DNA of 64,000 bases from Macrostomum lignano. Taxonomy: Eukaryota. Where the stretch lies: contig NIVC01000440.1 of the NCBI GenBank assembly GCA_002269645.1, positions 124,001 to 188,000 on the forward strand. The letters run 5' to 3'. This document shows, piece after piece, positions 2,891 to 29,669 of this stretch (its first letter is position 1; the number at the start of each line of letters is the position of its first letter). The position numbers were made by a program, and so were the translations under genes. The notes below the pieces were generated by a model. It did not search any database. It was not told the origin of the DNA and was given only the letters and a program-made list of their open reading frames with translations.

Positions 2891-3063
2891 TGAGCGCGCG
2901 ATGATGGGTCGAAAAGTTGAAAAATTAACATAAAAAAATTAATTTTACTGGGCTTCAGACAGATAATGATCAATTTATTTGTATCTGGGGGCAGGGGTGT
3001 CAAGGGAATTTCCGCATGCGGTGAGAGTGCTTCCAGGCGTAACCAAGATGTTTAATTGGAGGT

Positions 3064-3477
3064 GGTGCTGGCGCCCCTTGGTGCTAAAGCCCCTTGGTGC
3101 TAAAGCCCCTTGGTGCTAAAGCCCCCTTGGTGCTAAAGCCCCTTGGTGCTTAAGCCCCTTGGTGCTAAAGCCCCTTGGTGCTAAAGCCCCTTGGTGCTAA
3201 AGCCCCTTGGTGCTAAAGCCCCTTGGTGCTAAAGCCCCTTGGTGCTAAAGCCCCTTGGTGCTAAAGCCCCTTGGTGCTAAAGCCCCTTGGTGCTAAAGCC
3301 CCTTGGTGCTAAAGCCCCTTGGTGCTAAAGCCCCTTGGTGCTAAAGCCCCTTGCTGCTAAAGCCCCTTGGTGCTAAAGCCCCTGGTGCTAAAGCCCCTGG
3401 TGCTAAAGCCCCTTGGTGCTAAAGCCCCTTGGTGCTAAAGCCCCTTGGTGCTAAAGCCCCTTGGTGCTAAAGCCCCC
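3064..3477. repeat. 16-bp tandem array (GCCCCTTGGTGCTAAA)n, ~26 copies
   Basis: Direct inspection. Confidence 0.95.
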
Positions 3478-3949
3478 AATCAGAAAATTCTTGCCTCAAG
3501 CTATGAAGTCCCAAAGTAAAAATCCGAAACTTGTAAGTGAATTTTTTTCAATTTTTTGAGCGGAAAAATGCTTGAATAATCAAGCATATACAGTTATACT
3601 TACAGCCATTCGATTCCAAGGCAGTAATGTAGCTGAATTCCAATAGTTAAAAATATTATCAATAATTTTTGAGCAACAGTCATGTTGTTAGGCTTTGTTA
3701 TCTGTGTTATTTCGCAAGAAACACAAAGTTTTTTAAATCTGATTCACTCTCAGTTGCTTTGCGCTGTCTACGCAATGGTCAGCTTGCGAGGTATATATAT
3801 TCTTGGAAAATTATACGACCAATGGTGTCGGCGGCACTGCCTTTTGATCTCGCCGACTTGCTAGAATAGCACCTGAACAGTACGCCAAACTGTATAATTG
3901 CGCCCCCTCTCTTCTTCTTTGTGACGCTGCTTCTAAAAGAAGAAAACCT

Positions 3950-4200
3950 CGGACAAAGAGACAACCGTTTGCATGCGGTCAAAAGTTCCAATTTCGGAAT
4001 GGACACACGATCGCTATAGCCAGCTTCCAACTGGGAATGCTTCATCCAGCACAAGTGGTGTTCGGCCTGCGCCCTATTGGTTTTTGGTTTACGAACGCAA
4101 TAAATCATTTACTCGCTAAGGACGCGGGCCTCCGGGTTTAACGACTGAAGTCGCTGGGCCACGAGAGATGAAAGCTGCAGGAAGGTTAAATTTGCCGACT
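3950..4200 (-). pseudogene. Possible decayed BEL/Pao-type RNase H fragment
   Basis: Minus-strand RVSIPKLELLTAC resembles the BEL/Pao SIPRLEL motif; flanking similarity weak, upstream stop. Confidence 0.3.
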
Positions 4201-4396
4201 TTGAAAAGTAAAGCTTAAGTGGAGCGACGAAGGTCTGATTGCCCGCCTACGCAAAGTCATCTGGGAATCCGTGATTCTTTCTTTCTAATAAAGGCTGAGA
4301 CAGGTGTTAACTATATCTAAACTCAATTTTTTTTGTCTACACAAGAACCGGATCATACTTACGTGTATAACGTCTTATTGAGAGTTGAATGCCCAA

Positions 4397-4858
4397 GGTG
4401 CTGGCGCTGGCGCTCGGTGCTGGCGCCCCTTGGTGCTGGCGCCCCTTGGTGCTGGCGCCCCTTGGTGCTGGCGCCCCTTGGTGCTGGCGCCCCTTGGTGC
4501 TGGCGCCCCTTGGTGCTGGCGCCCCTTGGTGCTGGCGCCCCTTGGTGCTGGCGCCCCTTGGTGCTGGCGCCCCTTGGTGCTGGCGCCCCTTGGTGCTGGC
4601 GCCCCTTGGTGCTGGCGCCCCTTGGTGCTGGCGCCCCTTGGTGCTGGCGCCCCTTGGTGCTGGCGCCCCTTGGTGCTGGCGCCCCTTGGTGCTGGCGCCC
4701 CTTGGTGCTGGCGCCCCTTGGTGCTGGCGCCCCTTGGTGCTGGCGCCCCTTGGTGCTGGCGCCCCTTGGTGCTGGCGCCCCTTGGTGCTGGCGCCCCTTG
4801 GTGCTGGCGCCCCTTGGTGCTGGCGCCCCTTGCTGCTGGCGCCCCTTGGTGCTGGCGC
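4397..4858. repeat. 16-bp tandem array (GCCCCTTGGTGCTGGC)n, ~28 copies
   Basis: Direct inspection; shares 13-bp core with the 3064-3477 array. Confidence 0.95.
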
Positions 4859-6017
4859 TGGACCGCCCGCTGGTATACATGTATTTACATTTACATCAAA
4901 TATGGCACCACTGCAATCACGCATCACTTCATTACCCCAATATCGGGGATATTGGGGACATGTACTGCCCCAATATCGACTAAAATAAATACATGTACCG
5001 TATACATTCATTGAGCAAAATCCACATGCACCTTTTTCGATATAGACTTCACTTCAGCCAGGCCCTCCCATGCAGATCCCTTCTCTCTCCACTCATGCTT
5101 CAGCTCATCAATTTGATCCCCGCGCTGGTCACGACTCTGTCACCACCCCATACAGCAATCCGATGTTGGGGTTCGACGTACGTCAGCAACATGCGTGTAA
5201 ACATCCGCGTCGACGTTTAATTTCGACGTCTACACATGTACATGTAAAAGTAACATCTATTGACGCGGCTGGCAAATGGGTACTTTTGATCATGCAGTTC
5301 AGCGCTGCAGTTTCAGAAGTTTAATTTGTTTAACCATGCAGTCTCAATTACTGCCAAACTATAACCATGCATGTAAACTAACATAAAGTTAAAATTCGTA
5401 CAGTTTTAATTACATTTACACAAAACTATAGTGCTGATCATGGGTGGGAGTTTGCTTATACAATGAAAAACGTACGCTACGTACATGTACATGCATGTAC
5501 GTATGCAGTGTTAATTTCATCATTCACTAAACTGCTTTTGGCCTGATGAGAAAGTCAATTTTGAAAAAAACGAGTATATTTATGCCAGGTGTTGGGTCTA
5601 ACTACATGTTCGACTTACTCGTATCTTAATTACACTTTATATATGTACTCGACAATTGCATGTACATGCAGTGTACATGTACATTGCAATCTGCAGTTGC
5701 ATGAAAGAAAAACACAATCTCAACTTGCAAATTTTACAATTGACAATCTACAGCATCGTCTGTACTATTTCACATGCACATATATTTTAATTGAAAATTT
5801 TTGGGGTTTTTGCTGAACAGTGGCAGAATACTACTATAGTACCAATTGCAATTAGTCCGGGACTTTTGCAGGTTTTAGAAAAGTAACTGTAACGTACATC
5901 TAGAAGGAGCAGAATAGGACCAGAATGATTTGATCAAAACGCAGAGAAAACCGTCTTTATTAAAACAGCTCTTCTGCCGGCTCAGATCCTTTTACGAACT
6001 TCTAGTTTTCTTACTCC

Positions 6018-6881
6018 TGATGTGTTCCTTATTACCCGACTTTCGATAATCAAGGAACAATCAGTTCTAGCTCAACAGCTAGGCAACCCAGTTAGTCAAA
6101 CGAAGGTATTCAATTACCTTTAATCCGGATTTGAATTTCTTGAGTAGTTCTCGCTAGGAACTCGTCAGTAGATCTCGTAGATCAGGCGCCTTGATTCTTC
6201 AGTTGCTCTGGTCCTGGTTCCTCTTGTACTTCCGATAAATTCCTCCGGCCGGTATCTTCCGTCAGGACCAATCAGAGGCCTCGTATCAACAATGGGTACC
6301 CTGCGCCGAACAGCGGTTTGAATTAAGCCTCCTTCTTCTAGTAGTGCCTTTATGCACTCTAGGTATGGCTCCGGAAACCACTGATAGTCCTCTAAGATCT
6401 ATCAGGGGCAGTCCTTCTGGAGACTGCAACCAATGGAGTCTAAACAGACTCAAGAGTCTCAACAGACTCAAATAGACTCAAGTCTCAATAGACTTGAGCG
6501 AGACGTCTCTAACACAACGGGCGCAAATAAGGAAGGCTTACCGCAACAACTCGACCGAGTCTCGATTGACTTGGTAGATCAGGAAGTCCTCCTAAGGCTT
6601 CCTCTTCGGAGCGCTCCTCTTCCGTGGGGAGAATGACTCCGGTACCGCTTCAGATCGCTTGTATTTATAGGCAACTTTTTGCTCCAAAATAGCATCATTA
6701 CAATTCACGTGTTGCGCTAAAAGGGGAAAATGGCTCATGGCGTATTATTCTGGTAACATCTTTTCCTGGTAGCGTGATTCATTCAAAGCTTAGGCGCACA
6801 TGCGTGTACTTACTTACTTATAGTAGTATTATACGATTATCTTCTTTTTTTCTGTTTTTGCGGGAGGCAGAACACTCTACA
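6018..6881 (-). repeat. 3' LTR (864 bp)
   Basis: Matches 15743-16605 at offset 9725; differences seen are one G/C substitution (6064) and a 1-nt poly-T indel. Confidence 0.97.
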
Positions 6882-6884
6882 AAA

Positions 6885-6896
6885 TCTCCCTTTTTT
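6885..6896 (-). other. Polypurine tract AAAAAAGGGAGA
   Basis: Purine run 3 nt upstream of the TG start of the 3' LTR on the element's sense strand. Confidence 0.85.
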
Positions 6897-7009
6897 ACGA
6901 AAAAACTCGTCCCGAGTTTTAACAATAAAATAATAAAATTCTGTGGTGATCAGTTAATATAGGAAATAAACAATTGATTTTTTGCGCGTCTAGAGAAGCG
7001 AGGGTTTGG

Positions 7010-7444
7010 TCAAAACTCTAAAAACTTTTCAGTACATATTGCGGTCAAAACTCGAATATCGAGTAGACATCGAGTGGCATCAGGTTTGATACGACACCAC
7101 TTTCGAAACGTGCAGTCTCGCGGCATACTATTACATAAGGGGCATCCTATAATGCCCCTATTAGCGGTTTGCTTCAAACAGTGCATGCAAATAAAATGTT
7201 GGTGGTTACAATATTGAAACGTGCGCCAAGAATAACAATAGGCGCATTGTCGCAAACTATCTCTACAGAGGGGACAATTCTGCCATGGCTGAATATAGTG
7301 TGAATCACTTAAACATTGTCCGCAAACTTTATGTCCATTGATGCAAATAGTCGGTGGTTTGACAGCCAAGTCATCAGCTAAACATATCGGGCAGTCATAT
7401 AGCTGCTGAGGCTGGGGCGCCTGTTTCGACAGTGCGTTGCCCAT
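7010..7444 (-). CDS. Accessory ORF: 144-aa tandem double RING-finger protein with N-terminal myristoylation motif (MGNALSK)
   Basis: ATG at 7444; RING1 CPIC...CINGHKVCGQC...CPLC; RING2 CAYC...CNHQHFICMHC...CPLC; between pol stop and PPT, same strand as pol. Confidence 0.85.
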   Translation of the reverse strand: MGNALSKQAPQPQQLYDCPICLADDLAVKPPTICINGHKVCGQCLSDSHYIQPWQNCPLCRDSLRQCAYCYSWRTFQYCNHQHFICMHCLKQTANRGIIGCPLCNSMPRDCTFRKWCRIKPDATRCLLDIRVLTAICTEKFLEF

Positions 7445-7564
7445 AATTGTCGTCAATTTGTTGCTGTCTTTGTGTCGCTCGGATTAGTCGCCTTTTACGA
7501 CAAGCTTGCGAAGCTGTAGTGCTATTCTTTATCCCGGTCACTACACGGGGTTGTTCTCGAAACT

Positions 7565-10114
7565 TTAGCGTGGTCGTAGGTTGTAGCCATGTGGCTGGCT
7601 CACATCTGTCGTTTGAGTCTCCTCGTGCTTCGTCGCGATGTGGCGGTTCGTTGAACGCGTGCGATCGGCGTTGTCTAATGTCGGTAGAAACGTCGCCGTG
7701 TCAGTGTTGATCTTCTTCAGTCGATGAATGTGTACGTAGAACTGGTGCTGATGAGGATCTTGCACATTGGCCAGGCGCGCTGTTGTCGGTGACGTTAGTT
7801 GGACCACTCGATAGGGTCCTTTGTACTTCTGTGCATGTTTATGCGTCTGCTGTGGCGGGTAGTGCAGGTAGACGACGTCGCCGGCCGTCAGGGTTGTCGA
7901 TCTCGTGTCGTTGCCAGTGGTCAGAGCCACCTGGTTGTCAATATTGTGCTTGGCGATCTTCCATGCCAGGTGTAGTTGCGTGACGAATTTTTGAATGGAA
8001 GTCGGTACTTCCACGTACTGCGATGGTAGTAATTGCTGTGCGAGCAGATTTGGCGGCTGAAAGTCTCGTCCAAACATCAGGAAGAATGGCGTGTTGTCCG
8101 TTGATCGATGAATAGCACTGTTGTAGGCCATTGTTACAGATTGCAGGTAGATGATCCAGTCTTCCGGCTGTTGGTGCGCGAAATGTGTAATCATCTCGTG
8201 CAGGTTGCGGTGAAACCTTTCAACCATGTTCGCCTTCGGATTGTAGGTTGATGTGTAGATTTGCGTGATGTTGAGAATCTTTACTACTTGCTGAAACAGT
8301 TGCGATGTAAACTGCGATCCGTTGTCCGATGTGAGGTTCTTCGGCGTGCCGTACTTGCAAATGATTTCGTTGAAGAAACCCATTGCAACTGTCTGAGCTG
8401 TGATGTCCGGTATCGGTATGGCGATAGCAAACTTCGAGAAGATATCCAAGGCGGTTAAAATGTAGGTGTAGGCGATGCCCTGGAGGCAGCTCGGTGGCAG
8501 TGGTCCGGTGATGTCGATGCTTAGACAGTCCATTGTAGTGGACTTCGGAATGGACTGTAGCTGCGGTTTCTGTCGTCGTCCTGTCTTTGATGCAGCACAT
8601 GAATGGCAGTTGTTGCAATACTGCTTGATGTCGCCGTACATAGTTGGCCAAAAGTAGTATTGTTCCACTCTTGCAATGGTTTTGGCTGCCGACAGGTGTC
8701 CAGCGAGTGGGTTGTCGTGTAGCTCGTTGAGAATTGCTTGCCGAAACGAATATGGTATGTAGATCTTGGGTTTATTGTCGCTCATCCAGTAGAGCCGTGA
8801 CTTATTGATTGTTAGGTGTTGTCGTTGCTTGCGCAGGAATTTTCGTTCCATGGGACTGAGTTTGATGTTCTTGTCATCGTCTTTAACCGCTAGGTAGAAG
8901 TTGTCGCGCTCGGTTTCATCCACCAACTCTTTGATGTTAGGGATTGGGTGAATGGAGTTGACTTCATAGGCTCTTGACAGGGCGTCCGCGGCTTTGTTGG
9001 TAACTCCTGGTTTGTAGACGAGCTTGTAGTTGTAGTCCTGGATCTTGAGTGTCATCCTGATGAGTCGGTTGTTGGTCTGTCCTTTTGTAGTTACGACGTA
9101 GGTCAATGGTGCATGATCCGTGCGTACTATTGTCTGTATTGGAGAACCATAGATGTAGTAATGGAACTGTCGCAGAGCGAACAAGACTCCTAGTAGCTCT
9201 CGTTCCGTAGCTGACCACTTTGTCTCATTTGGTTTGAGTGCTCGACTGACATACGCAATAGGTCGTTCCTTCTTGTCCTCGGTTTCCTGTAGTAGGACTG
9301 CTCCGAGTCCCGTTCCTGAGGCGTCTGTCTCGATGATAAAGGGCTTGTCGAAGTCCGGATGCTGTAGCAGTGCGTCTGATGTCAGCTGTCGTTTGATTTC
9401 GTCGAAACTTTCTTGTTGTCTCTGTGTCCAGTTGTCTTGCTTCCATTTGTCGAACTTGAGCAGGTCGTACAGTGGCTTTGCTGTCTTTGCGAAGTTAGGT
9501 AAGAACTTCCTGAAGTATTGCGCAAGTCCAAGGAATGATTGGACCTTCGTTATACTGGTTGGCGTAGGAAACTTTTTCACCTTCTCTACGTTGTCTGGGT
9601 CCGGTGAAATTCCTTTGGCTGTCACTTGGTGTCCTAGGCAACGCACGTTGTCTCGGAAGAATTTGCACTTTGTCGGTTGCAGCTTTAGACCTTGGCGTTG
9701 AATGAGCGCTAGGGCCTTCTCCGTAGCTTCGTAGAGTCGCTCGAAATCCTCTCCGTAGGCTAAAATGTCGTCGACATAGTGCAGCAGGTTCGTGCATCCT
9801 GCTAGCATGTATGCTGTTAGTCGACTCATCGTTGCTGGGCTGTTGCTAAGTCCCATCGGCGATCGGTTGTACTCATAGACTTGTCCATTGTAGGTCTTGA
9901 AAGCCGTGTACTGTCGTGATTCTTTCTCGATTTCGATTTGCCAAAATCCATGACGTAGGTCGAACACTGTGAACAATTTTGCCGTGTTGAGCTTTGCTAG
10001 TAGTTCGGAGATCTTCGGTAGGCTTTGCTGATCCGTCGGTATGTACTTGTTCAACAGTCTGAAGTCGCATACGAGTCGTCTTTCGTTAGTCTCCTTCTTT
10101 GTACCAAGAGACAT
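7565..10114 (-). CDS. pol: Pol: RT, RNase H, integrase (joined to the upstream frame across a 1-nt frameshift at ~10098-10100)
   Basis: RRLVCDFRLLN, DLRHGFWQI, YVDD (9767-9778), TDASGTGLGAVL, ERELL, HHCC (H..GH...CHSC), SDNGSQF, ERFHR, KYKGPY. Confidence 0.95.
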   Translation of the reverse strand: MSLGTKKETNERRLVCDFRLLNKYIPTDQQSLPKISELLAKLNTAKLFTVFDLRHGFWQIEIEKESRQYTAFKTYNGQVYEYNRSPMGLSNSPATMSRLTAYMLAGCTNLLHYVDDILAYGEDFERLYEATEKALALIQRQGLKLQPTKCKFFRDNVRCLGHQVTAKGISPDPDNVEKVKKFPTPTSITKVQSFLGLAQYFRKFLPNFAKTAKPLYDLLKFDKWKQDNWTQRQQESFDEIKRQLTSDALLQHPDFDKPFIIETDASGTGLGAVLLQETEDKKERPIAYVSRALKPNETKWSATERELLGVLFALRQFHYYIYGSPIQTIVRTDHAPLTYVVTTKGQTNNRLIRMTLKIQDYNYKLVYKPGVTNKAADALSRAYEVNSIHPIPNIKELVDETERDNFYLAVKDDDKNIKLSPMERKFLRKQRQHLTINKSRLYWMSDNKPKIYIPYSFRQAILNELHDNPLAGHLSAAKTIARVEQYYFWPTMYGDIKQYCNNCHSCAASKTGRRQKPQLQSIPKSTTMDCLSIDITGPLPPSCLQGIAYTYILTALDIFSKFAIAIPIPDITAQTVAMGFFNEIICKYGTPKNLTSDNGSQFTSQLFQQVVKILNITQIYTSTYNPKANMVERFHRNLHEMITHFAHQQPEDWIIYLQSVTMAYNSAIHRSTDNTPFFLMFGRDFQPPNLLAQQLLPSQYVEVPTSIQKFVTQLHLAWKIAKHNIDNQVALTTGNDTRSTTLTAGDVVYLHYPPQQTHKHAQKYKGPYRVVQLTSPTTARLANVQDPHQHQFYVHIHRLKKINTDTATFLPTLDNADRTRSTNRHIATKHEETQTTDVSQPHGYNLRPR

Positions 10115-12399
10115 GGTGATGAGTATGCTGATATGGCTTTGCTAATGATGCCGTGTTTCAGCATTTTGTCGATAATCTCATCGAAGTGCTGTTGCAGATG
10201 CTTGGCGATCGGGTACGGCTTGCACTGAATTGGTTCCGTGTGCGGCAGAAGTTTGATTTCCTGTTTGATGTCCTTGGCTCGTCCGATGTCGTAGTCATGG
10301 TGGCAGAAAGCGTCGTTGTACTTCCACAACAGCTGTCGAACTTTCCTCTTTTGCTGTTCCGTAATCGGGCTGTCATCCAAATTGATCTTCTTTTGAAATT
10401 CTTCCTCTGTTAGTCGTGGAGTCGCTTGTTCAATCAGCATAACCGATGCCTGAGTGTTGAGATGACCGATGCACATTCCTTGCCGTAGATGAACCACTTC
10501 TGCGTTCGGGTTGAAGATTTGCACTGGCAGTTGCTTATCTTTTGCAACCAGCACTAGTGCCGTAGGCATCATGATTTGATGTTTTGCCGTAATTCTCCTG
10601 TGCGGATCAAATATCATTGCTTCATCTGCTGCGCTGGTCGCTTTCGCTCTGACCCAGCATGCGCTTTCAGGCTGGATGATGACATCTTGCTGCAGAGTTA
10701 CTTTCGGTAGTACTCGAATCTGGTTGATCAGTGGTTGCTCCACCGTGTCGATCCTAAATGTTTGCTTGTTGAAGTCGAAGGTCAATGGTAGTCGAAGCTG
10801 TTTGAACGTGTCTATTCCAACGATGACGTCTTGGTTTGGTAGTCTGTCGATGATGTACGTCGGGACCGTCAGCTGTTTATTAGCAATTTTCAAGTCAATA
10901 TCTGCTTTTCCTAGAATGTTGAGCGAATGTCCTCCTGCTCCTGCAACTGCGATTGCTGCTGGTCGTACCGCGAGTCGTAGCTTGTTGCATAATTGTTGCG
11001 AGATGACTGTGATCGAGCTGCCTGAATCCAGTAGTGCTCGACATGGCAAGTTGTTGACAATGACCTGAGCCATTGCTTTGCCAATCTCGGCGTGTAGCGT
11101 GCAGACGTAGTTTTCCGGCCATTTTGGCTCGTGTTGTTCAGGCTGATAAGTAGGTGGCTGCATTCTCGGTGCTGTTGGTGTTGTCGGAATCGATGGGTAC
11201 ATTCGCGTTGATGGTGTCGGCTGTCCTTGAGTTTCTTGTCGTGCATCCTCTGTCAATTCCAAGTTGTTGTCTTCTTCTCTTGGTGTCTTCTGCATGATGG
11301 CGTTCACTGTTCGTTTCGCTGTGGGACAAGTGTTGCTGAAGCATCGTACTATCGACGAGATGATAAAGATCGCCGTGACTATCCAAACAACGCAGGCGCT
11401 GTAGAAGATGAAGCCTTGATATAGGCTGCCTCTTCCGTTAAGCAGCTCCAAGAAGCTGTTTGTCCAAAACGATTGGATGGCGTTGTCCATCGACACAAGG
11501 ACCGGGAAATTGCGTGTTCCCGTTCCTTTATTCTTTCGTGTGAAGAGTTGACGAATCATCTTTCGTTGAGTGATGAACGCTTGCAAGAAGTCGTTGATGG
11601 TCCATCCTGGTGTTATTTCATCGAGTTGGATATCGGCGAATGGTGTGTACTTCGTTCTGTTGAACCGTATCTTCAGATCGTCCATGTCGTACGTTTCGTC
11701 GACTATCACTTCTGGTTCTGTGATGTTTGCTGTCGTTCCTGTTGTTTTAATGACATGTAGTGCATCGTCCAGTTGATAGTAGTTTGCTGCAGTGGTGCAA
11801 GGTCTTGGTATTGCGGTTCCAACGATGATGTTGTGTACCGTGTCCAAGAATCCTTGTATTCTTTTGCCTTCGTAGAATGCTTCAATTCTCGGCTTGTCGT
11901 AGCAAGTTGTTGAAGTGTTCGACGGTAAGATGTTGAAGTGCTGTATCGGCGTGCACTTGTATATCAGGAGATGTCCATATATCGGAATTGCCAGAACCTC
12001 TCTCATTCCAGTGATCTTGCGAAATGTCATCGTAGGGTTGACATAGTAGTTCTGTCTTGCGTAGTTCAAGTTGATTGCGTGCATTTTGCAAGTTAGCTGA
12101 ACCAGTGACCGATATAAGTGGTTTAGCTGGTTATGCAGGTTGTGATCCAGCGCCGTGATCTTTGCTGACAGTAGTAGGTTTGATACCAATCGTGGACGTT
12201 TTATGTCGCGTCGTTGCCTTTCTTGTTGTTGATACGTTCCGTTTATGATCGCCAGGAAGGTTCGTTTATCGTCATCCTTTACATAGACTGGTATTTCTTG
12301 CTCCGAGATGAATAGCGTCTTGTCCGTATTCTTGCATTTGAGTTCCTGTTCAACCGGCTTCTTTTGAAACGTCAAGGCCAAGTCTCCTGCTTTTGCCAA
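10051..12399 (-). CDS. Envelope C-terminal half + TM + cytoplasmic tail + aspartic protease + start of RT (same frame as gag)
   Basis: gB-like motifs, TM 11347-11412, protease ALLDSGS (DSG 11020-11028), RT N-terminus ending SAYSSPCLLV. Confidence 0.9.
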   Translation of the reverse strand: MAKAGDLALTFQKKPVEQELKCKNTDKTLFISEQEIPVYVKDDDKRTFLAIINGTYQQQERQRRDIKRPRLVSNLLLSAKITALDHNLHNQLNHLYRSLVQLTCKMHAINLNYARQNYYVNPTMTFRKITGMREVLAIPIYGHLLIYKCTPIQHFNILPSNTSTTCYDKPRIEAFYEGKRIQGFLDTVHNIIVGTAIPRPCTTAANYYQLDDALHVIKTTGTTANITEPEVIVDETYDMDDLKIRFNRTKYTPFADIQLDEITPGWTINDFLQAFITQRKMIRQLFTRKNKGTGTRNFPVLVSMDNAIQSFWTNSFLELLNGRGSLYQGFIFYSACVVWIVTAIFIISSIVRCFSNTCPTAKRTVNAIMQKTPREEDNNLELTEDARQETQGQPTPSTRMYPSIPTTPTAPRMQPPTYQPEQHEPKWPENYVCTLHAEIGKAMAQVIVNNLPCRALLDSGSSITVISQQLCNKLRLAVRPAAIAVAGAGGHSLNILGKADIDLKIANKQLTVPTYIIDRLPNQDVIVGIDTFKQLRLPLTFDFNKQTFRIDTVEQPLINQIRVLPKVTLQQDVIIQPESACWVRAKATSAADEAMIFDPHRRITAKHQIMMPTALVLVAKDKQLPVQIFNPNAEVVHLRQGMCIGHLNTQASVMLIEQATPRLTEEEFQKKINLDDSPITEQQKRKVRQLLWKYNDAFCHHDYDIGRAKDIKQEIKLLPHTEPIQCKPYPIAKHLQQHFDEIIDKMLKHGIISKAISAYSSPCLLVQRRRLTKDDSYATSDC

Positions 12400-13197
12400 A
12401 AACGTATTCGACAGTAGTCCTCCTTCAACTGTGTGATACTTTTGAAGCTTGCAGTCAATTTCCGGCTCTACTTCCCATGCGAAGAAATATTGTCATGACT
12501 TGTACGGTTCCTCATAGTGTGATTGTGCTCTGTGCTCAATCTGCCATCGATAGTCTTGATGATATGTTGGACTCAGTGGTAGACTGTGTAGTTCTTCCTT
12601 CCGTAGAATTGGTGTTGGACACCATCCTTCACTGTATCGACATTCGCTTAGTTGCAGCTGTAACGATTCCATTTTCTCGTACGGATTGTAGTAGAATGGA
12701 ATATTTCTGATCAAGTAGCTGTTGCGTGCCATATATTCTTTCCATTTTCCGAAGAAGTGAATGTATCGACCGTTGGCTGAATTCTTTGTTCTGAACAGCT
12801 GTGCGTTGCCGACCTTCTCATCTGGTTCCAGTTCACCATCCCTTTAAAATAGTGTTTGATTCCATTGTAGGCATTCCGCGTGCGACACATGTAGCTCATG
12901 TTGTTTGAATCGGATCCGGTTCCATTGTCCGCGCCAAACTTTTTCCACCAGGTGCTTGTCTCTGAAGCATACTATTCCGTGTTGTCGATGCTTCTTGATG
13001 TTAGCCTTGTAGAGATCGAGTGTAATCTTCTTTGGTTTCGTCTGGTTTGTCTTGAAGTAGCTGCATTTGATGTCGGTTGGTATCTTGTAGATCATCGGTT
13101 GGATATGCGCATCCGTTGGACAAATCATTGGTTTTTCCGTTGCCGTTGCTTTGGCGACTACTGCTATCAGTAGTATCACGATGATCCAGTATAGCCA
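11347..13197 (-). pseudogene. env: Envelope glycoprotein (class III fusion protein, herpes gB / chuvirus G-like), two in-frame stops in this copy
   Basis: Signal-like WLYWIIVILLIAVVAKA (13147-13197), cysteine-rich ectodomain, six N-x-S/T sequons, RQRR site (12208-12219), C-terminal TM; stops at 12844-12846 (TAA) and 12493-12495 (TGA) with the frame unchanged. Confidence 0.8.
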
Positions 13198-15030
13198 GTT
13201 TTTCCACTTCTTGGACCTTGCCGTTGTCTTTGCTGGCATTGGCCGCGATCGCCATTCGTTATCTTCCATGTCCGCATCATATCCTTCCGGTTGTTCCATT
13301 GGCTGTTTCAGGCGGAAGACTTCTGATTCGCTTTGCCTTTTGGTTATTTCATTATCTTCGTCTGCGGCTTCTTCCGATGTTTCCGTTGTTTCACTCCATT
13401 GCGTTTGGTATCTTTTCTCTGTCTTGTAGTCGACCGTTTGAATATAGGCTTCACCATTTCGTTTGTATCGGATCTCGTAGCATTCGTCGCTGTCGGAACT
13501 CGGCTTTTCTTTCATCTGTTCTTTTTCCATTTTTTCATCTTTCCATTGTATTTCGTAGCCTTGATCGCTGTCGGAACTTAGATTTTCCGCTCTCAGTTCT
13601 TCCTGCATTCCTCTTTCGGCTCGGTATCCGTTCGTGTCATCACGCACCTCGCAGTCGTGATCGTTGCCGTAACTCCTACATTCTTCTTCTTCTTTCATTT
13701 CCTTGTCTTTCATGCTCGTTTTGTCGTCATCCACTGTTGTCGATTCATAGTTGTTTTCTCTGCCGGTCTCCATCTTTTCTTCGTTACCGATGTCGCTCTC
13801 CGCCTCCTCCCTTTTCTTGTGATTTACTTTCTTCCTGTTTTCTCTGCTGTCTCCGGTGGTCTCTTTTAATTTGATCATTTCGGTTTCATTCGCCTCTTCC
13901 GTGTTGTCAGTGTTGTCCTCGTGCGTCGTCTTCTTTTCGATCAAGCTGATGTCAAGTTCCGGGACTGTGAAGTCCATTTCCAAGTCGTCAATTGTGAACA
14001 CTTGCTGTTCTTGCTGTTCATTTTCCGGTGTGTACGTGATGGCATTCGCGTATCGTGGCATTGCTTGCGTCGGCTGTCTTTGTGTGTATCTGGCGTTGCG
14101 TGGCCTGTAGCCATCATTTCTGAAGCGACCGTCATTTCCGTAGCGGCCATCATTTCCGAAGCGGCCATCCTTTCCGAAGCGTCTCATGTCTTGTTGGCGA
14201 TTTTGATATTGCTGCCATGGTTTCTGCGGCTTTTGATTGTTGAATGTCTGTCGTGGCTTGTCGTATCTTGTCGACCAATGGGGACAATTAATCTGATAAT
14301 GTCCTTCTCGTCCGCAGTAGTAACATCTGGCTGAGGCTCGTTCATTTCGTCTTTTTTGTTCGGCGATAGCAGCTGTCTGGTGCTGCATTAATTTGTTTAA
14401 TTGCTGCGTCAGTTTCTGCACTTCATTGTTGCCTGTCGTCATTAATGGGGCACTGGCTTCCCATTGCATTCCGCAACGCAAAAGGTCTTCTTCGGTTTCG
14501 ATATTTTCACGCAAAAGTCTATCCCGAAGTGACGGCTGTGCGTTGTTTATTACGTGCAGGATTAGGTTTTGTTCGCGATCCATCAATCGCTGTCTTTCTC
14601 TGGCGGCCAATTCTGCTGCTCCCAGTGGCGGTTGGTCCGCAGCTTGCAACGGTGGCTGATGCAGTGCCTTAATTATCTGGCGGATATCGTCCACAAAGGC
14701 GAGGAAGGATTCTGTTGCTTGCATCCTTCTGTTATGTAACTTGTGCAGCAGCACTGATCTGTTTGTGCCGCAACGGTTGAAATGCGCGCGCAGTTGAATG
14801 ATTAGTGCTGGATAATTTTGCTGTGTTGCCGCATCCAGCTTGCCGTAAATTTCTCGCGCAGTACCTTGGAGAAGAGGTGGCAGCAGCTGTGCCTTCTCTG
14901 GATTTTCTAGGTTGTATTCCCTACATACCAGGTCAAAATGGTCGACAAATGTGTTAAAATCTTTCTCCATCGAGAAGGTACCGACCGTTTCTTTGATGTC
15001 TCTGTGTACCGTTGGATTGCGCCGCGCCAT
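12844..15030 (-). CDS. gag: Gag (capsid + CCHC zinc knuckle) fused in frame to an acidic spacer and the envelope N-terminus
   Basis: Ty3-type capsid segment (F..F...C...LL..LL.G.A..Y..L...Y..L...L..HF), CYYCGREGHYQINC at 14284-14325. Confidence 0.92.
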   Translation of the reverse strand: MARRNPTVHRDIKETVGTFSMEKDFNTFVDHFDLVCREYNLENPEKAQLLPPLLQGTAREIYGKLDAATQQNYPALIIQLRAHFNRCGTNRSVLLHKLHNRRMQATESFLAFVDDIRQIIKALHQPPLQAADQPPLGAAELAARERQRLMDREQNLILHVINNAQPSLRDRLLRENIETEEDLLRCGMQWEASAPLMTTGNNEVQKLTQQLNKLMQHQTAAIAEQKRRNERASARCYYCGREGHYQINCPHWSTRYDKPRQTFNNQKPQKPWQQYQNRQQDMRRFGKDGRFGNDGRYGNDGRFRNDGYRPRNARYTQRQPTQAMPRYANAITYTPENEQQEQQVFTIDDLEMDFTVPELDISLIEKKTTHEDNTDNTEEANETEMIKLKETTGDSRENRKKVNHKKREEAESDIGNEEKMETGRENNYESTTVDDDKTSMKDKEMKEEEECRSYGNDHDCEVRDDTNGYRAERGMQEELRAENLSSDSDQGYEIQWKDEKMEKEQMKEKPSSDSDECYEIRYKRNGEAYIQTVDYKTEKRYQTQWSETTETSEEAADEDNEITKRQSESEVFRLKQPMEQPEGYDADMEDNEWRSRPMPAKTTARSKKWKNWLYWIIVILLIAVVAKATATEKPMICPTDAHIQPMIYKIPTDIKCSYFKTNQTKPKKITLDLYKANIKKHRQHGIVCFRDKHLVEKVWRGQWNRIRFKQHELHVSHAECLQWNQTLF

Positions 15031-15729
15031 GTTGTTGATAGGATAGAACGGTAGTTCAAGATCTGGATCGATTTGTAACGGATCGTCCAGTGTGGTGCTT
15101 GCCTCGGAATAAACCTCGACTGTAACGAATTGCCTTGCGGTGTCGATCTGTTATTCGCTGGCCTCGAAGTTGCGGCTTGCTGCCACTGGTTGTCCTCAAA
15201 TGAACTTGTTCTGTTCGCTTGCTGATTTCGCACTTATGCGGCGTCCCGCAAAGTGTATCTTCAAGTTGAAGTGGGCTTTGTCTTCTTGCTTTGCAAAGTC
15301 TTTTTTCTCTTCTTTGACTTTCTCTCTTTGTCAATTAACTCCGCTCTTCACGAAGTTTCAATTAATTTCGGTTTTGTTTTAGTTTTTGTGCCGGCAAAAT
15401 GTTTCAGTTATTTTTTTGTTTGTTTTGCGTCGATGATTCTTTTGTTTTCGGTTTGTTTTCAGTGTACCGACGAAGTTAATTTCGGTTTTGTTTTAAACTC
15501 ACACTTGCTCGAGCTCGTCAAAACAAAATTTTTACACGCGTGCTCAACTGTACTCAAATTTGACAGGTGCTCAAACCTGTACACCAAAATTTACTCGAGT
15601 TTCAAAACGTAACGGACTTAAAAAGTGTTAACTCTAACATGTGCGCGCAAAATTAATGAAGTCGCTCTGTCGTCACTTTACAATAGCTTGGCCAGGCTAT
15701 TGCTCAAATTTTGAGTAGTGCCGAGAGGG

Positions 15730-15740
15730 CGAGATCACCA
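15730..15740 (-). other. Primer-binding site TGGTGATCTCG
   Basis: TGG-initiated, 2 nt downstream of the 5' LTR end; pairs with a tRNA-Trp-type 3' end if two G-U wobbles are allowed. Confidence 0.7.
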
Positions 15741-15742
15741 AT

Positions 15743-16605
15743 TGATGTGTTCCTTATTACCCGACTTTCGATAATCAAGGAACAATCACTTCTAGCTCAA
15801 CAGCTAGGCAACCCAGTTAGTCAAACGAAGGTATTCAATTACCTTTAATCCGGATTTGAATTTCTTGAGTAGTTCTCGCTAGGAACTCGTCAGTAGATCT
15901 CGTAGATCAGGCGCCTTGATTCTTCAGTTGCTCTGGTCCTGGTTCCTCTTGTACTTCCGATAAATTCCTCCGGCCGGTATCTTCCGTCAGGACCAATCAG
16001 AGGCCTCGTATCAACAATGGGTACCCTGCGCCGAACAGCGGTTTGAATTAAGCCTCCTTCTTCTAGTAGTGCCTTTATGCACTCTAGGTATGGCTCCGGA
16101 AACCACTGATAGTCCTCTAAGATCTATCAGGGGCAGTCCTTCTGGAGACTGCAACCAATGGAGTCTAAACAGACTCAAGAGTCTCAACAGACTCAAATAG
16201 ACTCAAGTCTCAATAGACTTGAGCGAGACGTCTCTAACACAACGGGCGCAAATAAGGAAGGCTTACCGCAACAACTCGACCGAGTCTCGATTGACTTGGT
16301 AGATCAGGAAGTCCTCCTAAGGCTTCCTCTTCGGAGCGCTCCTCTTCCGTGGGGAGAATGACTCCGGTACCGCTTCAGATCGCTTGTATTTATAGGCAAC
16401 TTTTTGCTCCAAAATAGCATCATTACAATTCACGTGTTGCGCTAAAAGGGGAAAATGGCTCATGGCGTATTATTCTGGTAACATCTTTTCCTGGTAGCGT
16501 GATTCATTCAAAGCTTAGGCGCACATGCGTGTACTTACTTACTTATAGTAGTATTATACGATTATCTTCTTTTTTCTGTTTTTGCGGGAGGCAGAACACT
16601 CTACA
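15743..16605 (-). repeat. 5' LTR (863 bp)
   Basis: Near-identical to 6018-6881; followed on the sense strand by the PBS. Confidence 0.97.
16387..16394 (-). promoter_or_regulatory. LTR TATA box TATAAATA (copy at 6662-6669)
   Basis: Consensus TATA on the element's sense strand ~210 nt into U3. Confidence 0.65.
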
Positions 16606-20100: not shown

Positions 20101-23100
20101 TGATTGTTAATTCACTCTTGCAATCAATGGATAAAATATTACTTATTTTTTACTAATTTGTAATGTGCAATCTATGAAGTTTTAAAATCATAAAGTAGAA
20201 CTAAAAATGTTACAGGTCTGTAACTAAAAAGGTTCAAAGTTTTTCAATTGATTTGAGCAATTTTGGTATATTGTATCTGAAAATAATATGGGCTTTGCTT
20301 TATTGGGTCAAGTTTTTATACAAGTTAGAACTTTTTGGTATAATTATTCTTTTACATTCACTGGTCAGCTTGACCGACTAGTCGGAAGCTACTATTAGAT
20401 TCTTTACCAATTTATGATAGTTCTCAGCTGTTATGTTGCTTAAGATTTTATTGAAAACTTTGGTAAAAGTATCCCATGTAGCTCTTTTTAGATAGATTAG
20501 TCATCAGTGTCTCTCATTAGTTGCTAGACTTGGGAGCCATTAAATATACTAGCCTTTAGTTTCTTCTCAGTGAGTACAACATTATTGAAGCATTATCCTT
20601 GCTTATTAAGTACATTTGTAAACTGCTTGATAAGGCCCAGTTTTATATGTAGTTGTGGGAACAATATCTTGTTGCAATTGACTAATGGCTCATGGATGAC
20701 ATGTGCAAGGCTTTAGACACTCTTTGGCTGCACTTTTAAAATTTTTTGTCTATTTATTGCTCAACTGCACAAAAAGCAAGGATACTTGCTTTAGTTTGAC
20801 TATAAGCCCAGTAAAAATGAACCATCTTTAAATCTATGCATATGATCCATTCATGATCACAGTATGGCTATTTTTAGCAGAACACACTTGATGTCATTAT
20901 TGTTTCTTCAGTGTTATCCAATCGTCCAGAGGTATTGATGGATAATATTGCTATTATATAGGTATAGCAGTATAAATTTCAGAGTCCTTGCTACAGTCAA
21001 TATAAAGCTGCCAGTCCAATGCTTCTATACCAATCTTTTTAAAGCCCAGGCATATCTATACAAAGCACAAGGTTTTTCTATTGCACAAAAAATTCTAAAA
21101 TTTATCCTGTCTAATTCAAAATGCTATTATCCAAGCAGGCCCTTTACCAAAACGGTGCTTTGACTTCAGCCTAGAAAGCAACAGTGCACTAGCTTATTAG
21201 GATAAATAAAAGTCATGGACCAAGTTGTTCAATTTACCTTGAAAGAAGAGCTGACGTGGGGTACTCTTGTCTGCAGGCAAATAGATGTTATTATCACTAG
21301 CTGCATCATCAACTGAGTTGCTGATTTACTGCAGCCTAGCATAAACTGGCACCAGAATTTCTTCATAGTGAGGGACTGGTCAACACACAATTTCGAGATC
21401 AAGATACATGAGTATATGGTGATTGCAAATTGTTTCAGTTAATGCCAAGTCAACACTAGGCCACAGACTACATAGAAGTGGCAGCAGTTGCAGTAGTGGT
21501 CTAGTGGATCATAAATGGATATTCATACTTTATATGACCCTTAGAAGCAGTGGTGTGATTCAGGCGCGAAAATGGCGCGAATGCGCGAATCCTGGAGGTC
21601 TGGCGCGAAATTTTGTGGAACCATGGGCGCGAAAATTGCATTCTTATTTTCTGCTTTTTACACTTATTCTCTTGTCAGACAGTATGAAATACAAGAATGT
21701 CATAGCTTAGGAGATTAATCCCGAGAATTTCGAGATTCGTGGAGAATTTCGTGGTCGCAAAGAAGCAAAGTGACACTGAAGATGTGGCTGCTACGTCTGC
21801 AAGGGCGGCAGAGATCAGATGTGTTGTCAGGATTGCACTAAGAATCGCAGCTTCGAGTCAGAAGAGGACCTTGCCGAGGATCTGATGGCCATTTGCCCAG
21901 ATTCAAAGATTCCACCCAACATCGCCAACAAGAAGTTCAGGCGGGACACGGCTGGGACTTGAGAGACATGTTAATTGGTAGCCAGACGCATCTTCAAAAG
22001 TGTCATCAATTGACTTATTTGGCTGTCAGTAGAATATCATTGGCATGGCGCGAAAATTTTCAGTCGGCGCAAAATTTGGCAAACTTTCCAATCACACCAC
22101 TGCTTAGAAGGAGCAAACAAACTCTTGGAGCCATTTGTTTATTAGTTGTTAGTTGTTTATTTGTTAGTAGACAAAAAGGCAATTGATAAAATCATGTCAC
22201 ATTTTTTATTCATTTATTATTAAAATATAGTTGGTTATCTAGCCTAATGAAAAAAGAATTTGGCTTATATAATTGTGAATATAATCTTTCTATTTAATCC
22301 CAACTCTAATTTGCCAACATTATATTAGGAAAAATAACTGCTTATTTTAGCCCACAGACATCATGTTATATCAATTTTTTATTATCCTCTCTTATTTAAA
22401 CATTGGAACCATAATGCCATTTGGCATCTTGGGTCCAAATTCAAATGCCAAATAAAAACAGGTTGCTACCATCAGAGCATTACTTAAAGAGTGAAATTCT
22501 AGCATCTTTTCCATACCCTTTTACCTTGCTAGAATAAACTTGTCAGTATAAGCTAATGTAAATTATTATTATATAAAATGCTTCATCTTTGTACTCAATC
22601 ATGTTAGCTGGCGACTGGCTGCAAGGCCCCTACGTGTACGCCCTCTATGAGCACTACAAGCTGTCCAAGCGGGACATTGAGTTCCTATTCGTTGCCGGAT
22701 TCGGAGCCAGCATGCTGTTTGGCACTGTTGTCGGCTCTTTTTCCGATAAATTTGGTCGCCAACGTAACTGCATTCTGTATGGCATTATCTACAGCTTGTC
22801 CTGTCTGACTAAGCACTCCAGCAATTTCTGGGTACTGTTGCTAGGCAGGTTGCTAGGCGGCACAGCTACTAGTATACTGTGGAGTGGCTTTGAAACCTGG
22901 CTGATACACGAGCATCATAGTAGAGGCTACAGCGATAGGCTACTAGAAGAGATTTTTAGTTGGGCCACTATCGGCAATAGCATCGTAGCCATTGTGTGCG
23001 GCGTTGCTGCCCAATACGCTGTAGACCTATTCGGCTTTGTTGCTCCATTCGATATGGCTCTGATCATTCTAGTCATTATGACCGTCATTGTTTGGCTCAA

Positions 23101-23709
23101 ATGGCCGGAAAACTACGGCGATGCCAGTGCAGATTTGAAGAAGAACTTCTCTGACGCTTTGACAACTGTGCGCACTGATAGGAGAGTCTTGTGTCTGGGC
23201 GTTGTACAGTCCCTGTTCGAGGGCAGCATGTACTGCTTTGTACTGGAATGGACTCCGGCATTGACTCCGTCTGCTGCCTGTGAGATATTCTTACTTTTTT
23301 TGAAGGGGGCGGATTTAGTCATTTCTATTAAACATCTGTCTCGTAATATAAATATAACTTCCTCACCATTGCTCTTCTTCATCTTATCATCCGTTTTTTC
23401 ACAATTTGCTTTCCATCATGCGCTCAAACTCAATCAGAGTCTGATCCTTTTAATATCTTAAGTCCCTCAATTAACTTTTCCATGCCCTGTTCTTTCCCAT
23501 TTCTTATTCGTCTCCCTCTCCTGACCTTCCTCTCCCTCTCCCTCTCCCCTGTCCCTTCTCTCTCCATCTCCCTTTCCCTCTCTCCCACTCTCTCACTCTC
23601 CCTCTCTTTCCCTTTCTTCTTCATCTCTCCCTCTCTCTCACTCTACCTCTCCCTCTCTTTCTCTCTTCCTCATCTCTCCCTCTCTCTCACTGTCTTTCTC
23701 TTTCTCTTC

Positions 23710-23777
<68 letters not shown>

Positions 23778-25500
23778 CCTCTCTTTTCCTTTCTCTCTTC
23801 CTCCTCTCTCCTTCTCTATTTTTCTCTCCCTCTCCTTCCCTCCTTTCTTTCTCTCTCTCTCTTCCTCTTACCCTGTCCGTCTCTTCTGCCCCCTTTGCCA
23901 ATGCACAGTTCTCATACTGTGACTATCCCGCCCTACCCAGCCACCATGAGCAGCGGTCACGCGGGGAAAATCCCGCACGGCTACATCTTCGCGGCCTACA
24001 TGGTTAGCCTGATGATTGGCGGCCAGCTGTTCTCGTTCTGCTGCAACCGGTCCAAGCCGGAGTCCTTCATGCGCTGGGTGTTTGGCCTGAGCTCAGTCTG
24101 TCTGGTTCAGCCAGCCCTGATGCGCAGTGATTCGCTGATCCCAATCACCTTTGTTGGCTTCCTTGTGTTCGAGTGCTGCGTTGGACTGTTCTGGCCGGCT
24201 ATTGGCACTATGAGGAGCAAATATGTGCCGGATTCCAGTGAGTTTGGGCTTTGGATAAAGACTTGATTGATTAAAACACATAAATTGTCTAAACTATGTT
24301 GAGATTTCTGGTCAGACAAAGACCTGAAATGTCTGTTGAGTTATCTGAGATCATCTGAATGGATAAAGACTTGGAATGTAAGTTTTGACTATCAGAGATC
24401 ATCTAATGGACAAAGACCTGGAATATCTGTTTTGGTTATCAGAGATCATCTGAATGGACAAAGACCTGGAATGTCTGTTGTGTTATCTGAGATTATCTGA
24501 ATGGACAAAGACCTTGAATGCCTGTTGAGCTGATAATGAGGCAATCGCACCGCACAACCCGCAGTTCGCGCCACCATCATGAACCTGTTCCGTATTCCGC
24601 TCAACCTGGTTGTGGTGATTATTCTAACTCAGAATTTTCCAATCGTGTTCATCTTCAAGTGCTGCGTATTTTTCCTAATCATCTGCTGCGGCATTCAGTT
24701 CTACTTGGAACGGTGAGCTGAGTTCGCGTTTAGTACTGATGCCAATGAGTTCAGTGGGCTATAATCTCTGTTTACATGAGTTCTGCTCAGTAGCTTTGCG
24801 CGTCTAAGCCTTAAGCCTAACAAAATCCATTAGGACAAAAAATATGTTTTTTTTTCTCGTGGGCAAACACAGTCTGCACTATTGAAATGGGTAACAACTG
24901 TGCAAAATGCATTTCCTGCTTTTAGAAAAATTGGCATTTCTTTAATATCATTTAGAATTGACTTAATCTGTCTATTTTATGGCTAGGAAACTTAATAAAC
25001 TTTTCTAATCTCTCTGAATCTCAATCGGTAGTTTCAGAATCTCAATCGGTAGTTTCTGAATCACGATCGGTAGTTTCTGAATCTCAATCGGTAGTTTCTG
25101 AATCATGATCGGTAGTTTCTGAATCACAATCGGCAGTTTCTGAATCTCAATCGGCAGCTTCTGAATCAAAATCGGTAGTTTCTGAATCACGATCGGTAGT
25201 TTCTGAATCACAATCGGCAGTTTCTGAATCACGATCGGTAGTTTCTGAATCACAATCGGCAGTTTCTGAATCACGATCGGTAGTTTCTGAATCACAATCG
25301 GCAGTTTCTGAATCACGATCGGTAGTTTCTGAATCACAATGGGCAGTTTCTGAAATCTTAGCCAGTCTTGAATGCATTTTAAATAATTTTGTTGTTTTTC
25401 CAGCCTTACTCGCGATGAAGCCCCGGTGGAGTCTGCAGACGGTCAGACGGCAGAAAAGTCTACAGAAGATGACCGAAAAGAGTTTCAAGGCATCGCCTGA
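17117..25500 (+). CDS. MFSD5: MFS molybdate-anion transporter (MFSD5 family), 456 aa; exons 17117-17273, 22608-23279, 23941-24237, 24565-24712, 25404-25500
   Basis: YL..YLL.MAGDWLQGPYVYALY, FE.W...EH, FEGSMY.FV..WTP, IPHG.IF..M, G.FWP..G..RS, RATIMN.FR.PLN; all introns GT-AG and phase-compatible; total 1371 nt. Confidence 0.93.
20375..21250 (-). pseudogene. Decayed DNA-transposon transposase (resembles CMC/Chapaev-3 type) in MFSD5 intron 1
   Basis: Interrupted minus-strand motifs: LNNLVHD..LS, LLLSRLK, DWQLYIDCSK, HEWIICIDLK..FLLG, KYPCFLC, EPLV..KI.FP.LHIKLGLIKQF, EKKLKA.IFNG.Q; many stops and frameshifts. Confidence 0.7.
21548..22102. mobile_element. hAT-type MITE (555 bp)
   Basis: Perfect 13-bp TIR CAGTGGTGTGATT/AATCACACCACTG and perfect 8-bp TSD CTTAGAAG (21540-21547, 22103-22110); subterminal GGCGCGAA motifs. 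Confidence 0.92.
23480..23880. repeat. Polypyrimidine/(CT)n tract in MFSD5 intron 2
   Basis: Direct inspection. Confidence 0.9.
24290..24535. repeat. ~47-bp degenerate tandem repeat x5 in MFSD5 intron 3
   Basis: Recurring ATCTGAATGGACAAAGACCTGGAATG at 47-48 bp spacing. Confidence 0.85.
25008..25345. repeat. 21-bp tandem repeat (~16 copies) in MFSD5 intron 4
   Basis: Unit TCTGAATCACGATCGGTAGTT. Confidence 0.95.
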
Positions 25501-26371
25501 ACCTGAACTAAATAGTTTTTTAAGAACGATTTTCATAGGCTTATGGTATAGGATAAGCAGGTCACGTGCCACAGTGCGTGTTTCTTACCTTGTCTTATTT
25601 TATGTGGGCTAGCTATCCTATATGATTTCTAAGATTTTCTTTGTTTTCTAAACATTCTTTTGCTTGAGTTTTTATTGTTAATAAATAAACGTTTGCTTCT
25701 AACTGAAGAATGAGACTTTATTAAGACAGACAGATGGAATGATTGTCTGATAGTTGTAAACTAAATAACCAATATTTAATATTATATGGTATCATCAGTG
25801 CCTGGTATATATTCTACTATAAATATCACAGTGTGATAATTGTGACATTCCATTACGTCTGTTAGTTTTTGTTAAAATAACGTTTTTAATAACCTGCCTA
25901 TCAATATTACGGTAACTTATTATATTTTTTGTTTAAAAAATCATCACGTCCTTAGTTAGCTACTCATGAGTATGCGGAAAGTAGTATAACATGTGAATTG
26001 GCTGAACGGGTAATAGAGAAATTTTTAAATTAGCGCTAATGTAATCGGAATTGGCATACCCTATGCACACCCTATACACGCTGTCATTTTTTCTGTTTAG
26101 CTAGATTTTGTAGTTTCACGTTATTAATAGTATGTTAAAATTCACGTGTGTTGTTTATTGCCGCGTGTGCGCTCTTTATTTGTATATTGTTTCATTTTCT
26201 AACGAACTATCAAAACGTTGGAGTTTTTACGTTTTTTTCTTTAAGTGAGTTTTTGCTGCTCTTAGTAATGCCTTAATAAAATCGTTCTGAAAAATTGACT
26301 TTTGAGATAATTTAACCTTTTAATTTTAAGTCCGGAATCACCTTTCAGCTAGTACTCAGAAGTATAGCCCA

Positions 26372-27893: not shown

Positions 27894-28009
27894 TCGATAA
27901 ATCGATAGCAACATCAGTTGAAGCTTTGCCAACCCTCATTGCAGCGCAGTTGCAGACCGCTCACCACGCTACATATGTACTAAAAGCCACTTACCTATCT
28001 AAATACGCA

Positions 28010-29458: not shown

Positions 29459-29669
29459 AAGCAATGCTTTTCCAGAGTTCGTTCTGCCTGAAAAGTGCCA
29501 ATCCTGCGTCGCATTAGACTTTCTCATTATTGGCTTGCATGAAAATATTATATAATAAATCTAGCACTTTGTGGAAATAAGAGTGCTATACTCGTACTCG
29601 TATATTTCGTTGAGGTCAGTTAGACAGTTCTCTAGAGGCAGCTGTTGGGCACCATTGTAAGGTATATTG

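Follow-up and report, generated by a model that had tools for sequence, protein, structure and literature searches.

Candidate ESCRT-recruiting motifs in the Env tail of a gag-env-pol Ty3/gypsy element of Macrostomum lignano

P(T/S)AP binds Tsg101, PPxY binds the WW domains of the Nedd4 family and YPx(n)L binds ALIX. The same three types make up the late domains of retroviral Gag (PTAP and YPXnL in HIV-1 p6, PPXY in oncoretroviruses) and the PTAPPEY of Ebola virus, and the retroviral Gag regions, like the Env tail described here, hold them clustered, redundant and position-independent (PMC7995964, PMC8402826). Late motifs are also on record outside Gag and matrix, in bluetongue virus NS3 (PSAP and PPXY; PMC7995964) and in yellow fever virus NS3, whose YPXI is a reported ALIX ligand (PMC10532540); unlike the Env considered below, both are non-structural proteins of unrelated viruses, are not fusion glycoproteins and are not joined to Pol.

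Among env-carrying Ty3/gypsy elements, the Drosophila errantiviruses gypsy and ZAM resemble the present element in their non-myristoylated Gag and differ from it in their gag-pol-env order and F-type Env; the sole motif noted for them is a YxxL-like one in gypsy Gag, endosomal and exosomal routes are described for ZAM, and a 2012 review states ESCRT use by errantiviruses as unknown (PMC3383448). GAG-ENV-POL errantiviruses with an HSV/gB-type Env have been published from Platyhelminthes, Nematoda and Bryozoa in a 2026 survey, which analyses ectodomains; by term search, its main text makes no mention of ESCRT, late domain, budding, cytoplasmic, RING or myristoyl, and does not address exit (PMC13524379). 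For the tail of HSV-1 glycoprotein B, whose fold class the present Env is predicted to share, no P(S/T)AP, YPxL or PPxY is named in the passage on it in PMC7995964. Both the class of element and the types of motif were known before; what appears to be new, judged from sequence, is the presence of late-domain motifs on an Env tail. We found no report of late domains in the Env tail of an errantivirus or retrotransposon; the nematode-element work of Sacco et al. 2022, which is said to hold the first description of the gag-env-pol gene order, may mention some.

The element described here lies in a window of 64,000 nucleotides, the whole stretch of DNA that was analysed. It shares with Mlig_errantivirus_2 of Macrostomum lignano a Ty3/gypsy pol, a gB-type env between gag and pol, a length of ~10.6 kb, LTRs of 863-864 nt and an identical primer-binding site (PMC13524379), and differs from the published GAG-ENV-POL class in its interrupted frames. 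Unlike those of retroviral Gag or matrix, its motifs stand on the predicted cytosolic tail of a fusion glycoprotein, within one Gag-Env-Pol chain, and its predicted ALIX-type motif ends in Ile, unlike the retroviral YPXnL. The locus bears on the question of whether non-insect env-carrying Ty3/gypsy elements form particles that leave cells, and by which route.

Structure of the element and of its Env tail

The element (6018-16605) has TG...CA LTRs, a primer-binding site, a polypurine tract and a 4-bp target duplication, CTCC, on both flanks. It belongs to the Ty3/gypsy elements (Metaviridae) by its Pfam matches (RVP/Asp_protease_2, RVT_1, RT_RNaseH_2, Integrase_H2C2, rve) and its order of protease, RT, RNase H and integrase. 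Env stands between gag and pol, and the full series runs Gag, signal anchor, Env, second anchor, tail, protease, RT, RNase H, integrase, RING ORF. All of the following features are on the minus strand.

15743..16605, minus: 5' LTR, 99.77% identical to the 3' LTR over 864 columns
15729..15740, minus: primer-binding site; its reverse complement is the one listed for the published Macrostomum element (PMC13524379)
13198..15030, minus: Gag, with a capsid-like N-terminus without N-terminal Gly, one CCHC knuckle (~14278-14325) and an acidic C-terminal region; no P(S/T)AP, no PPxY
13141..13197 (approximate limits), minus: TM1, putative internal signal anchor joining Gag to Env, from hydropathy
11425..13140, minus: predicted gB-type Env ectodomain, with in-frame stops at 12844-12846 and 12493-12495
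11347..11424 (approximate limits), minus: TM2, C-terminal membrane anchor of Env, from a hydropathy scan
11107..11340, minus: Env tail, or Env-protease linker, 78 aa, with the motif block; cytosolic by the predicted two-anchor topology
11188..11202, minus: MYPSI, ALIX-type motif ([LIM]YPxI), with YPSI at 11188-11199; the YxxPhi sorting pattern also fits
11167..11178, minus: PTAP, TSG101-type late-domain motif, read from the sequence
11146..11157, minus: PPTY, Nedd4/WW-type motif, read from the sequence
10783..11073, minus: aspartic protease (Pfam RVP / Asp_protease_2), catalytic Asp codon at 11026-11028
7565..10141, minus: RT, RNase H and integrase, in a frame different from that of the protease ORF (change near 10051-10141)
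7010..7444, minus: small accessory ORF with RING-finger matches and, in family A, a Met-Gly (myristoylation-like) start
6885..6896, minus: polypurine tract, from the sequence
6018..6881, minus: 3' LTR, from the LTR alignment

The window element is a young Ty3/gypsy copy. Its frame is not intact, env being broken by two in-frame stops and the frame changing ahead of RT; the copy is interrupted upstream of the motifs and as it stands cannot express them from the gag start. Uninterrupted copies elsewhere in the genome have a single Gag-to-integrase frame of ~2,500 aa. An 801-nt piece of the element has 41 matches in the genome, and among named proteins the nearest are those of Macrostomum lignano. 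In this region the subfamily of the window copy shares ~86% identity with the subfamily that has the most copies. Only two places differ between the LTRs, against two stops and a frame change in the coding region, which could be due to recent damage, to descent from a defective master copy or to an assembly error. Element copies 10-15 kb apart were also seen on single contigs (C2121, C1130, C87, C669 and C2447), which suggests tandem arrays or clusters.

Env is predicted to have the gB (class III) fold. It matches PF24664 below the curated cut-off (E 7.9e-6), and in a model of its C-terminal part (pLDDT 76.5) the listed top structure matches are all herpesvirus gB, the best at E 3e-7 with TM-scores of only ~0.33; a PDB sequence search with Env gave no matches. 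In most lineages two hydrophobic anchors bracket the ectodomain, a topology that would expose the tail to the cytosol.

On the minus strand from 11202, the sequence reads M (11200-11202), YPSI, PTT, PTAP, RMQ and PPTY in turn, a 19-residue cassette including the Met. The original prediction had placed YPSI, PTAP and PPTY within 18 codons, between the membrane anchor and the protease, and it was correct in both respects: the motifs share one frame (11146-11199, 54 nt) within ORF 10051-12492, with the hydrophobic stretch (~11347-11424) on one side and the protease, catalytic Asp at 11026-11028, on the other. All three late-domain patterns, P(S/T)AP, YPx(n)L/I and PPxY, are matched by the tail; the last residue of YPSI is Ile, not Leu, a variant with precedent. 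When the 78-residue tail was shuffled 200,000 times the three motifs never came together, and shuffling the 32 Pro/Thr-rich residues that surround the block brought them together at a frequency of 5.5e-5. Individually the motifs are no rarity in shuffled tails (1.6%, 2.1% and 5.2%), so only the cluster and its conservation carry weight. Outside this ORF, the element has three further ORF pieces (729, 116 and 858 aa), in which P(S/T)AP and PPxY are absent and a YPxL-type match occurs once, within the capsid region. The tail has three lysines.

A Trp-Pro pair lies shortly before the protease start (window 11101-11124, minus strand) and recurs in many distant env-protease linkers; perhaps it is part of the protease cleavage context.

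Conservation among copies, lineages and distant relatives

Close copies were scored at the 58 of 60 loci that could be anchored (the exceptions being L033 and L060). The YPxI-type motif is present at 53/53 loci of family A, PTAP at 52/53 and PPxY at 51/53, the last of these taking N, T, G or I as its free residue; in family B the counts are 5/5 for the YPxI-type motif and 4/5 for PTAP. Many family A copies are near-identical, and loci counts are therefore not independent. Among 29 family A haplotypes the ten core motif positions show one amino-acid change and six synonymous codon variants, and the adjacent 45 residues of tail 35 amino-acid changes and 31 synonymous ones. The pattern indicates that selection keeps the protein motif, not the DNA, and the conservation against a variable background that had been named as a check on the original prediction held.

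This bears on the reading that the block owes its conservation to something else (protease cleavage context or an RNA signal) or that a Pro/Thr-rich linker matches the patterns by chance. The block does lie 10-25 residues ahead of the protease start, where the flanking Trp-Pro and the N-terminal residues of the protease are conserved too; in family A, synonymous changes are missing from four codons in or near the core, and one family gene model in the database is without the 33-residue block. Against these points stand the shuffle results, synonymous changes at 6 of the 10 core codons, the fact that lineages differ in motif order and in the spacing from motif to protease, the motif-free junctions of env-less elements given below, and assembled contigs of three runs that cross the block without a gap. 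Order-swapped conservation already largely refutes the reading, which we regard as very improbable.

The gene model itself was considered as a splice form and rejected, being a chimeric prediction. One assembled contig skips 10953-11580 with non-splice ends; contigs of this kind cannot show transcription or splicing.

Comparison was extended to seven env-carrying lineages of the genome (A, B1, B2, C, D, E and F), one locus with no protease nearby (L061/L127) being left out. Their tails are 22-58% identical. [LIM]YPxI occurs in six of the seven (shuffle mean 0.03) and P(S/T)AP in five (shuffle mean 0.15), counts reached in none of 20,000 shuffles; PPxY, found in the tail of A only (shuffle mean 0.36), is not above chance (6,205 of 20,000 shuffles). 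Shared ancestry, seen in the lineage tree (built with 4 short rows left out, and with long branches), means that the shuffle counts overstate independence. In A, PTAP follows YPxI; in B1, B2, C and E, P(S/T)AP is upstream of it. Family B, with an Env 62-65% identical to that of family A, has a differently worded tail in which PTAP precedes IYP[KR]I. At ~25% Env identity the tails read PSAP..IYPTI in C, PPAP..LYPKI in D and PSAP..LYPTI in E, and the tail of family F (Env 22% identical) has none of the three motifs. In family B, the sister lineage, a Nedd4/WW-type motif stands at the Gag end just before TM1, not in the tail, and family A has none there:

L119, residue 590 of the long ORF, and L120, residue 121 of the long ORF: PPPY / PPAY of family B, Gag end

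By sequence, families A and B thus both hold all three types, in different places. The original prediction of all three ESCRT types clustered in the Env tail stands for the lineage of the window and fails as a general feature, such a tail being found in one of seven lineages; more general and better supported than this headline is a stable core in which an ALIX-type motif is paired with a TSG101-type one where the Env tail ends. The lineages show a conserved core in a variable context, independent of position, with PPxY in the tail only within family A. Late domains work from varied positions and in combination (PMC7995964, PMC8402826), and the order swaps between lineages accordingly favour late domains.

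Distant relatives were sampled as 151 proteins, the best 150 of 217 matches plus one earlier protein: 34 with env, anchor and protease (32 after removal of 2 from the family of the window), 10 with env and no located protease, 16 with env and an anchor or protease not located, 31 with protease only, and the rest unclassified. Among the matches listed, 12 of the 32 tails carry at least one motif against 1.93 expected (0 of 5,000 shuffles), 20 of the 32 have none of the three, and P(S/T)AP occurs in 2 of the 10 env proteins without a located protease. By type, YPx[LI] was found 6 times against 0.97 in shuffles (2 of the 6 are placed directly at the anchor and could be chance matches) and 4 times against 0.15 under the strict pattern, P(S/T)AP 4 times against ~0.28-0.29, and PPxY, likewise enriched alone, 5 times against 0.73. 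Motifs are ~10-fold denser in these tails than elsewhere in the proteins concerned. Ten decoy patterns similar in composition score 0-4, and the top-scoring one overlaps real PTAP sites. Ten motif-bearing distant proteins were looked up; two are from Macrostomum and one from Caenorhabditis tropicalis.

Motifs were absent from all of 9 CCHC-Gag-protease junctions of env-less elements, and from the Gag-protease junction of all of 10 env-less families in the genome (33 loci, by coordinates), three of the control families or loci having only 58-103 in-frame residues before the protease. Among the elements examined, the motifs are confined by sequence to those that carry env. With motifs conserved, shuffled in position and enriched in env-carrying relatives, the sequences argue that the motifs of the window tail are not chance matches in a Pro/Thr-rich linker, the outcome by which the original prediction was to have been refuted.

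The block sits, relative to the protease, where p6 sits in HIV-1. It could on that account be an old p6-like Gag end that kept its place next to the protease when an env insertion separated nucleocapsid from protease, and that is now a relic or re-used. The env-less junctions (0/9 and 0/10 with motifs) speak against such an origin, with the reserve that they may not be the closest env-less sisters, and we give it scarcely any credence.

YxxPhi endocytosis signals are typical of Env tails, and YPSI fits the pattern. Were the tyrosine motif alone to matter, as an AP-2/AP-1 signal, the proline motifs would be by-products of a Pro-rich linker; some YxxPhi is present in 7/7 lineages, the motif-less F included, and PPxY is at chance level across the tails. 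AP-2, though, is not known to need Pro at +1, and Pro at +1 together with L, I or M at -1 is kept in six of seven lineages. YxxPhi without that Pro is not enriched (1/7 lineages against 2.2; 13 distant tails against 13.7), and P(S/T)AP is enriched by itself (5/7 against 0.15; 4 against 0.28). We hold this explanation to be quite improbable.

Candidate host partners and proposed route of exit

Host genes with a TSG101 UEV domain and with an ALIX V domain are present, as are HECT genes; no WW-HECT ligase gene could be located, and the WW pattern was absent from the 12 loci scanned. In the host UEV (L091:1489-1884, minus strand), alignment pairs human Tyr63 with His and Phe142 with Val, two positions that we take to be part of the PTAP groove. 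A model of this UEV with the tail scored 0.38 against 0.00 for the best control and was rated as weak support; at least 87% of contacts are shared between its runs, and partner pLDDT is at least 49. For scores of 0.60 or under, the mark was attained by only 5 of 78 solved complexes, as well as by every one of the 4 mismatches that passed. Since solved TSG101-PTAP complexes exist, the model shows likeness only. We consider it quite likely that the tail motifs bind ESCRT adaptors.

The original prediction had also called the placement of budding signals on Env-Pol rather than Gag unusual. Their position outside Gag is right for the lineage of the window. It is less odd than it seemed, for the uninterrupted copies are one gag-env-pol frame, so that the tail is made 1:1 with Gag and would share the same cytosol.

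We propose that the block is a functional late-domain cassette with a role in particle release, which, on the sequence evidence, we think rather probable. In this scheme one polyprotein is made (Gag-TM1-Env-TM2-tail-PR-RT-RH-IN, the frame being that of the uninterrupted copies). Judged from hydropathy, TM1 would serve as an internal signal anchor that keeps Gag cytosolic and sends the gB-type ectodomain into the lumen, and TM2 would bring the tail and Pol back to the cytosol. Gag has no matrix-type myristoylation start, and TM1 would tether it to the membrane, Env trimers displaying the tail, one per Gag, on its cytosolic face. By established motif biology, [LIM]YPxI would recruit ALIX, P(S/T)AP would recruit TSG101/ESCRT-I and, in the family A lineage, PPxY a Nedd4-type ligase; a particle budding from the plasma membrane or into an endosome would then have its neck cut by ESCRT-III. 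The protease may later cleave itself off downstream of the block, so that the motifs would come to lie at the C-terminal end of Env.

The same motifs might instead bind ESCRT adaptors and Nedd4-type ligases so that Env (or Env-Pol) is sorted, retained or degraded in the endosomal system, or loaded into ordinary exosomes, with no virion scission. They stand on the tail of a membrane protein with three lysines, cellular cargo proteins use them (PMC10532540, PMC7995964), HSV-1 gB is sorted into multivesicular bodies and ubiquitylated (PMC7995964), and every conservation result fits sorting or turnover equally well. Release is favoured by the restriction of the motifs to env-carrying elements, by the crowding of two to three adaptor types, shuffled, within fewer than 20 residues and the move of the family B motif to the Gag end, both as in viral late-domain regions, and by a family A Gag that offers no other P(S/T)AP or PPxY. 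A role in sorting or turnover is the main rival to release; we judge it to be unlikely, if well short of negligible. The claim of strong support for budding is accordingly narrowed: the data support ESCRT engagement, with docking of adaptors likely, and budding as such, weighed against Env sorting or turnover, is somewhat the more probable outcome.

Only tentatively do we extend the proposal to gag-env-pol errantiviruses at large. These have no matrix domain and a single polyprotein, and their exit may be driven by the Env tail, the fusogen tail being at once a Pol tether and an ESCRT-recruiting late domain, with distant lineages, flatworm and nematode ones among them, having repeatedly gained, lost and moved the motifs (in the tail or at the Gag end by the signal anchor). 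Lineage F and the 20 of 32 distant tails without motifs indicate that the cassette is not required by every gag-env-pol element. If exit through the Env tail holds true, the motifs would provide, for the first time, evidence from sequence that envelope-carrying Ty3/gypsy elements use ESCRT and that a class III fusogen can carry late domains. The scheme shows how a Gag-Env-Pol fusion could achieve membrane targeting and scission without a matrix protein, the motifs would offer a simple sequence marker for env-carrying lineages likely to be released, and a 19-residue cassette with named host partners makes the question of exit testable on peptides and host genes.

The RING ORF and the surrounding window

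Homologues of the RING ORF follow integrase in families A and B, with the Met-Gly start in A only, and vary in length and stops; some loci (on C4009, C272 and C1063) have several diverged RING ORFs in tandem. The product is possibly an element-encoded ubiquitin ligase, and may add ubiquitin at the budding site. A family assignment as an arenavirus-Z-like matrix protein was considered and rejected: the product matches cellular RING ligases in the PDB, no late motif is present in it, and family B has no Met-Gly start.

Elsewhere in the window lie host exons and minisatellite arrays:

1650-2315, minus: host exon, Wnt
22577-23461, plus: host exon, MFS_5 transporter
36038-39160, plus: host exon, EGF-domain protein
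45892-46494, minus: host exon, CAP-domain protein
53126-55462, plus: host exon, C2H2 zinc-finger protein
1090-1735: minisatellite array, period 54 bp
3046-5000: minisatellite array, period 16 bp
24950-25432: minisatellite array, period 21 bp
26371-27918: minisatellite array, period 34/37 bp
29648-30000: minisatellite array, period 23 bp

Beside the 34/37-bp tandem repeats, an ORF with a Schlafen AlbA_2 domain lies at 27839-29458 on the plus strand.
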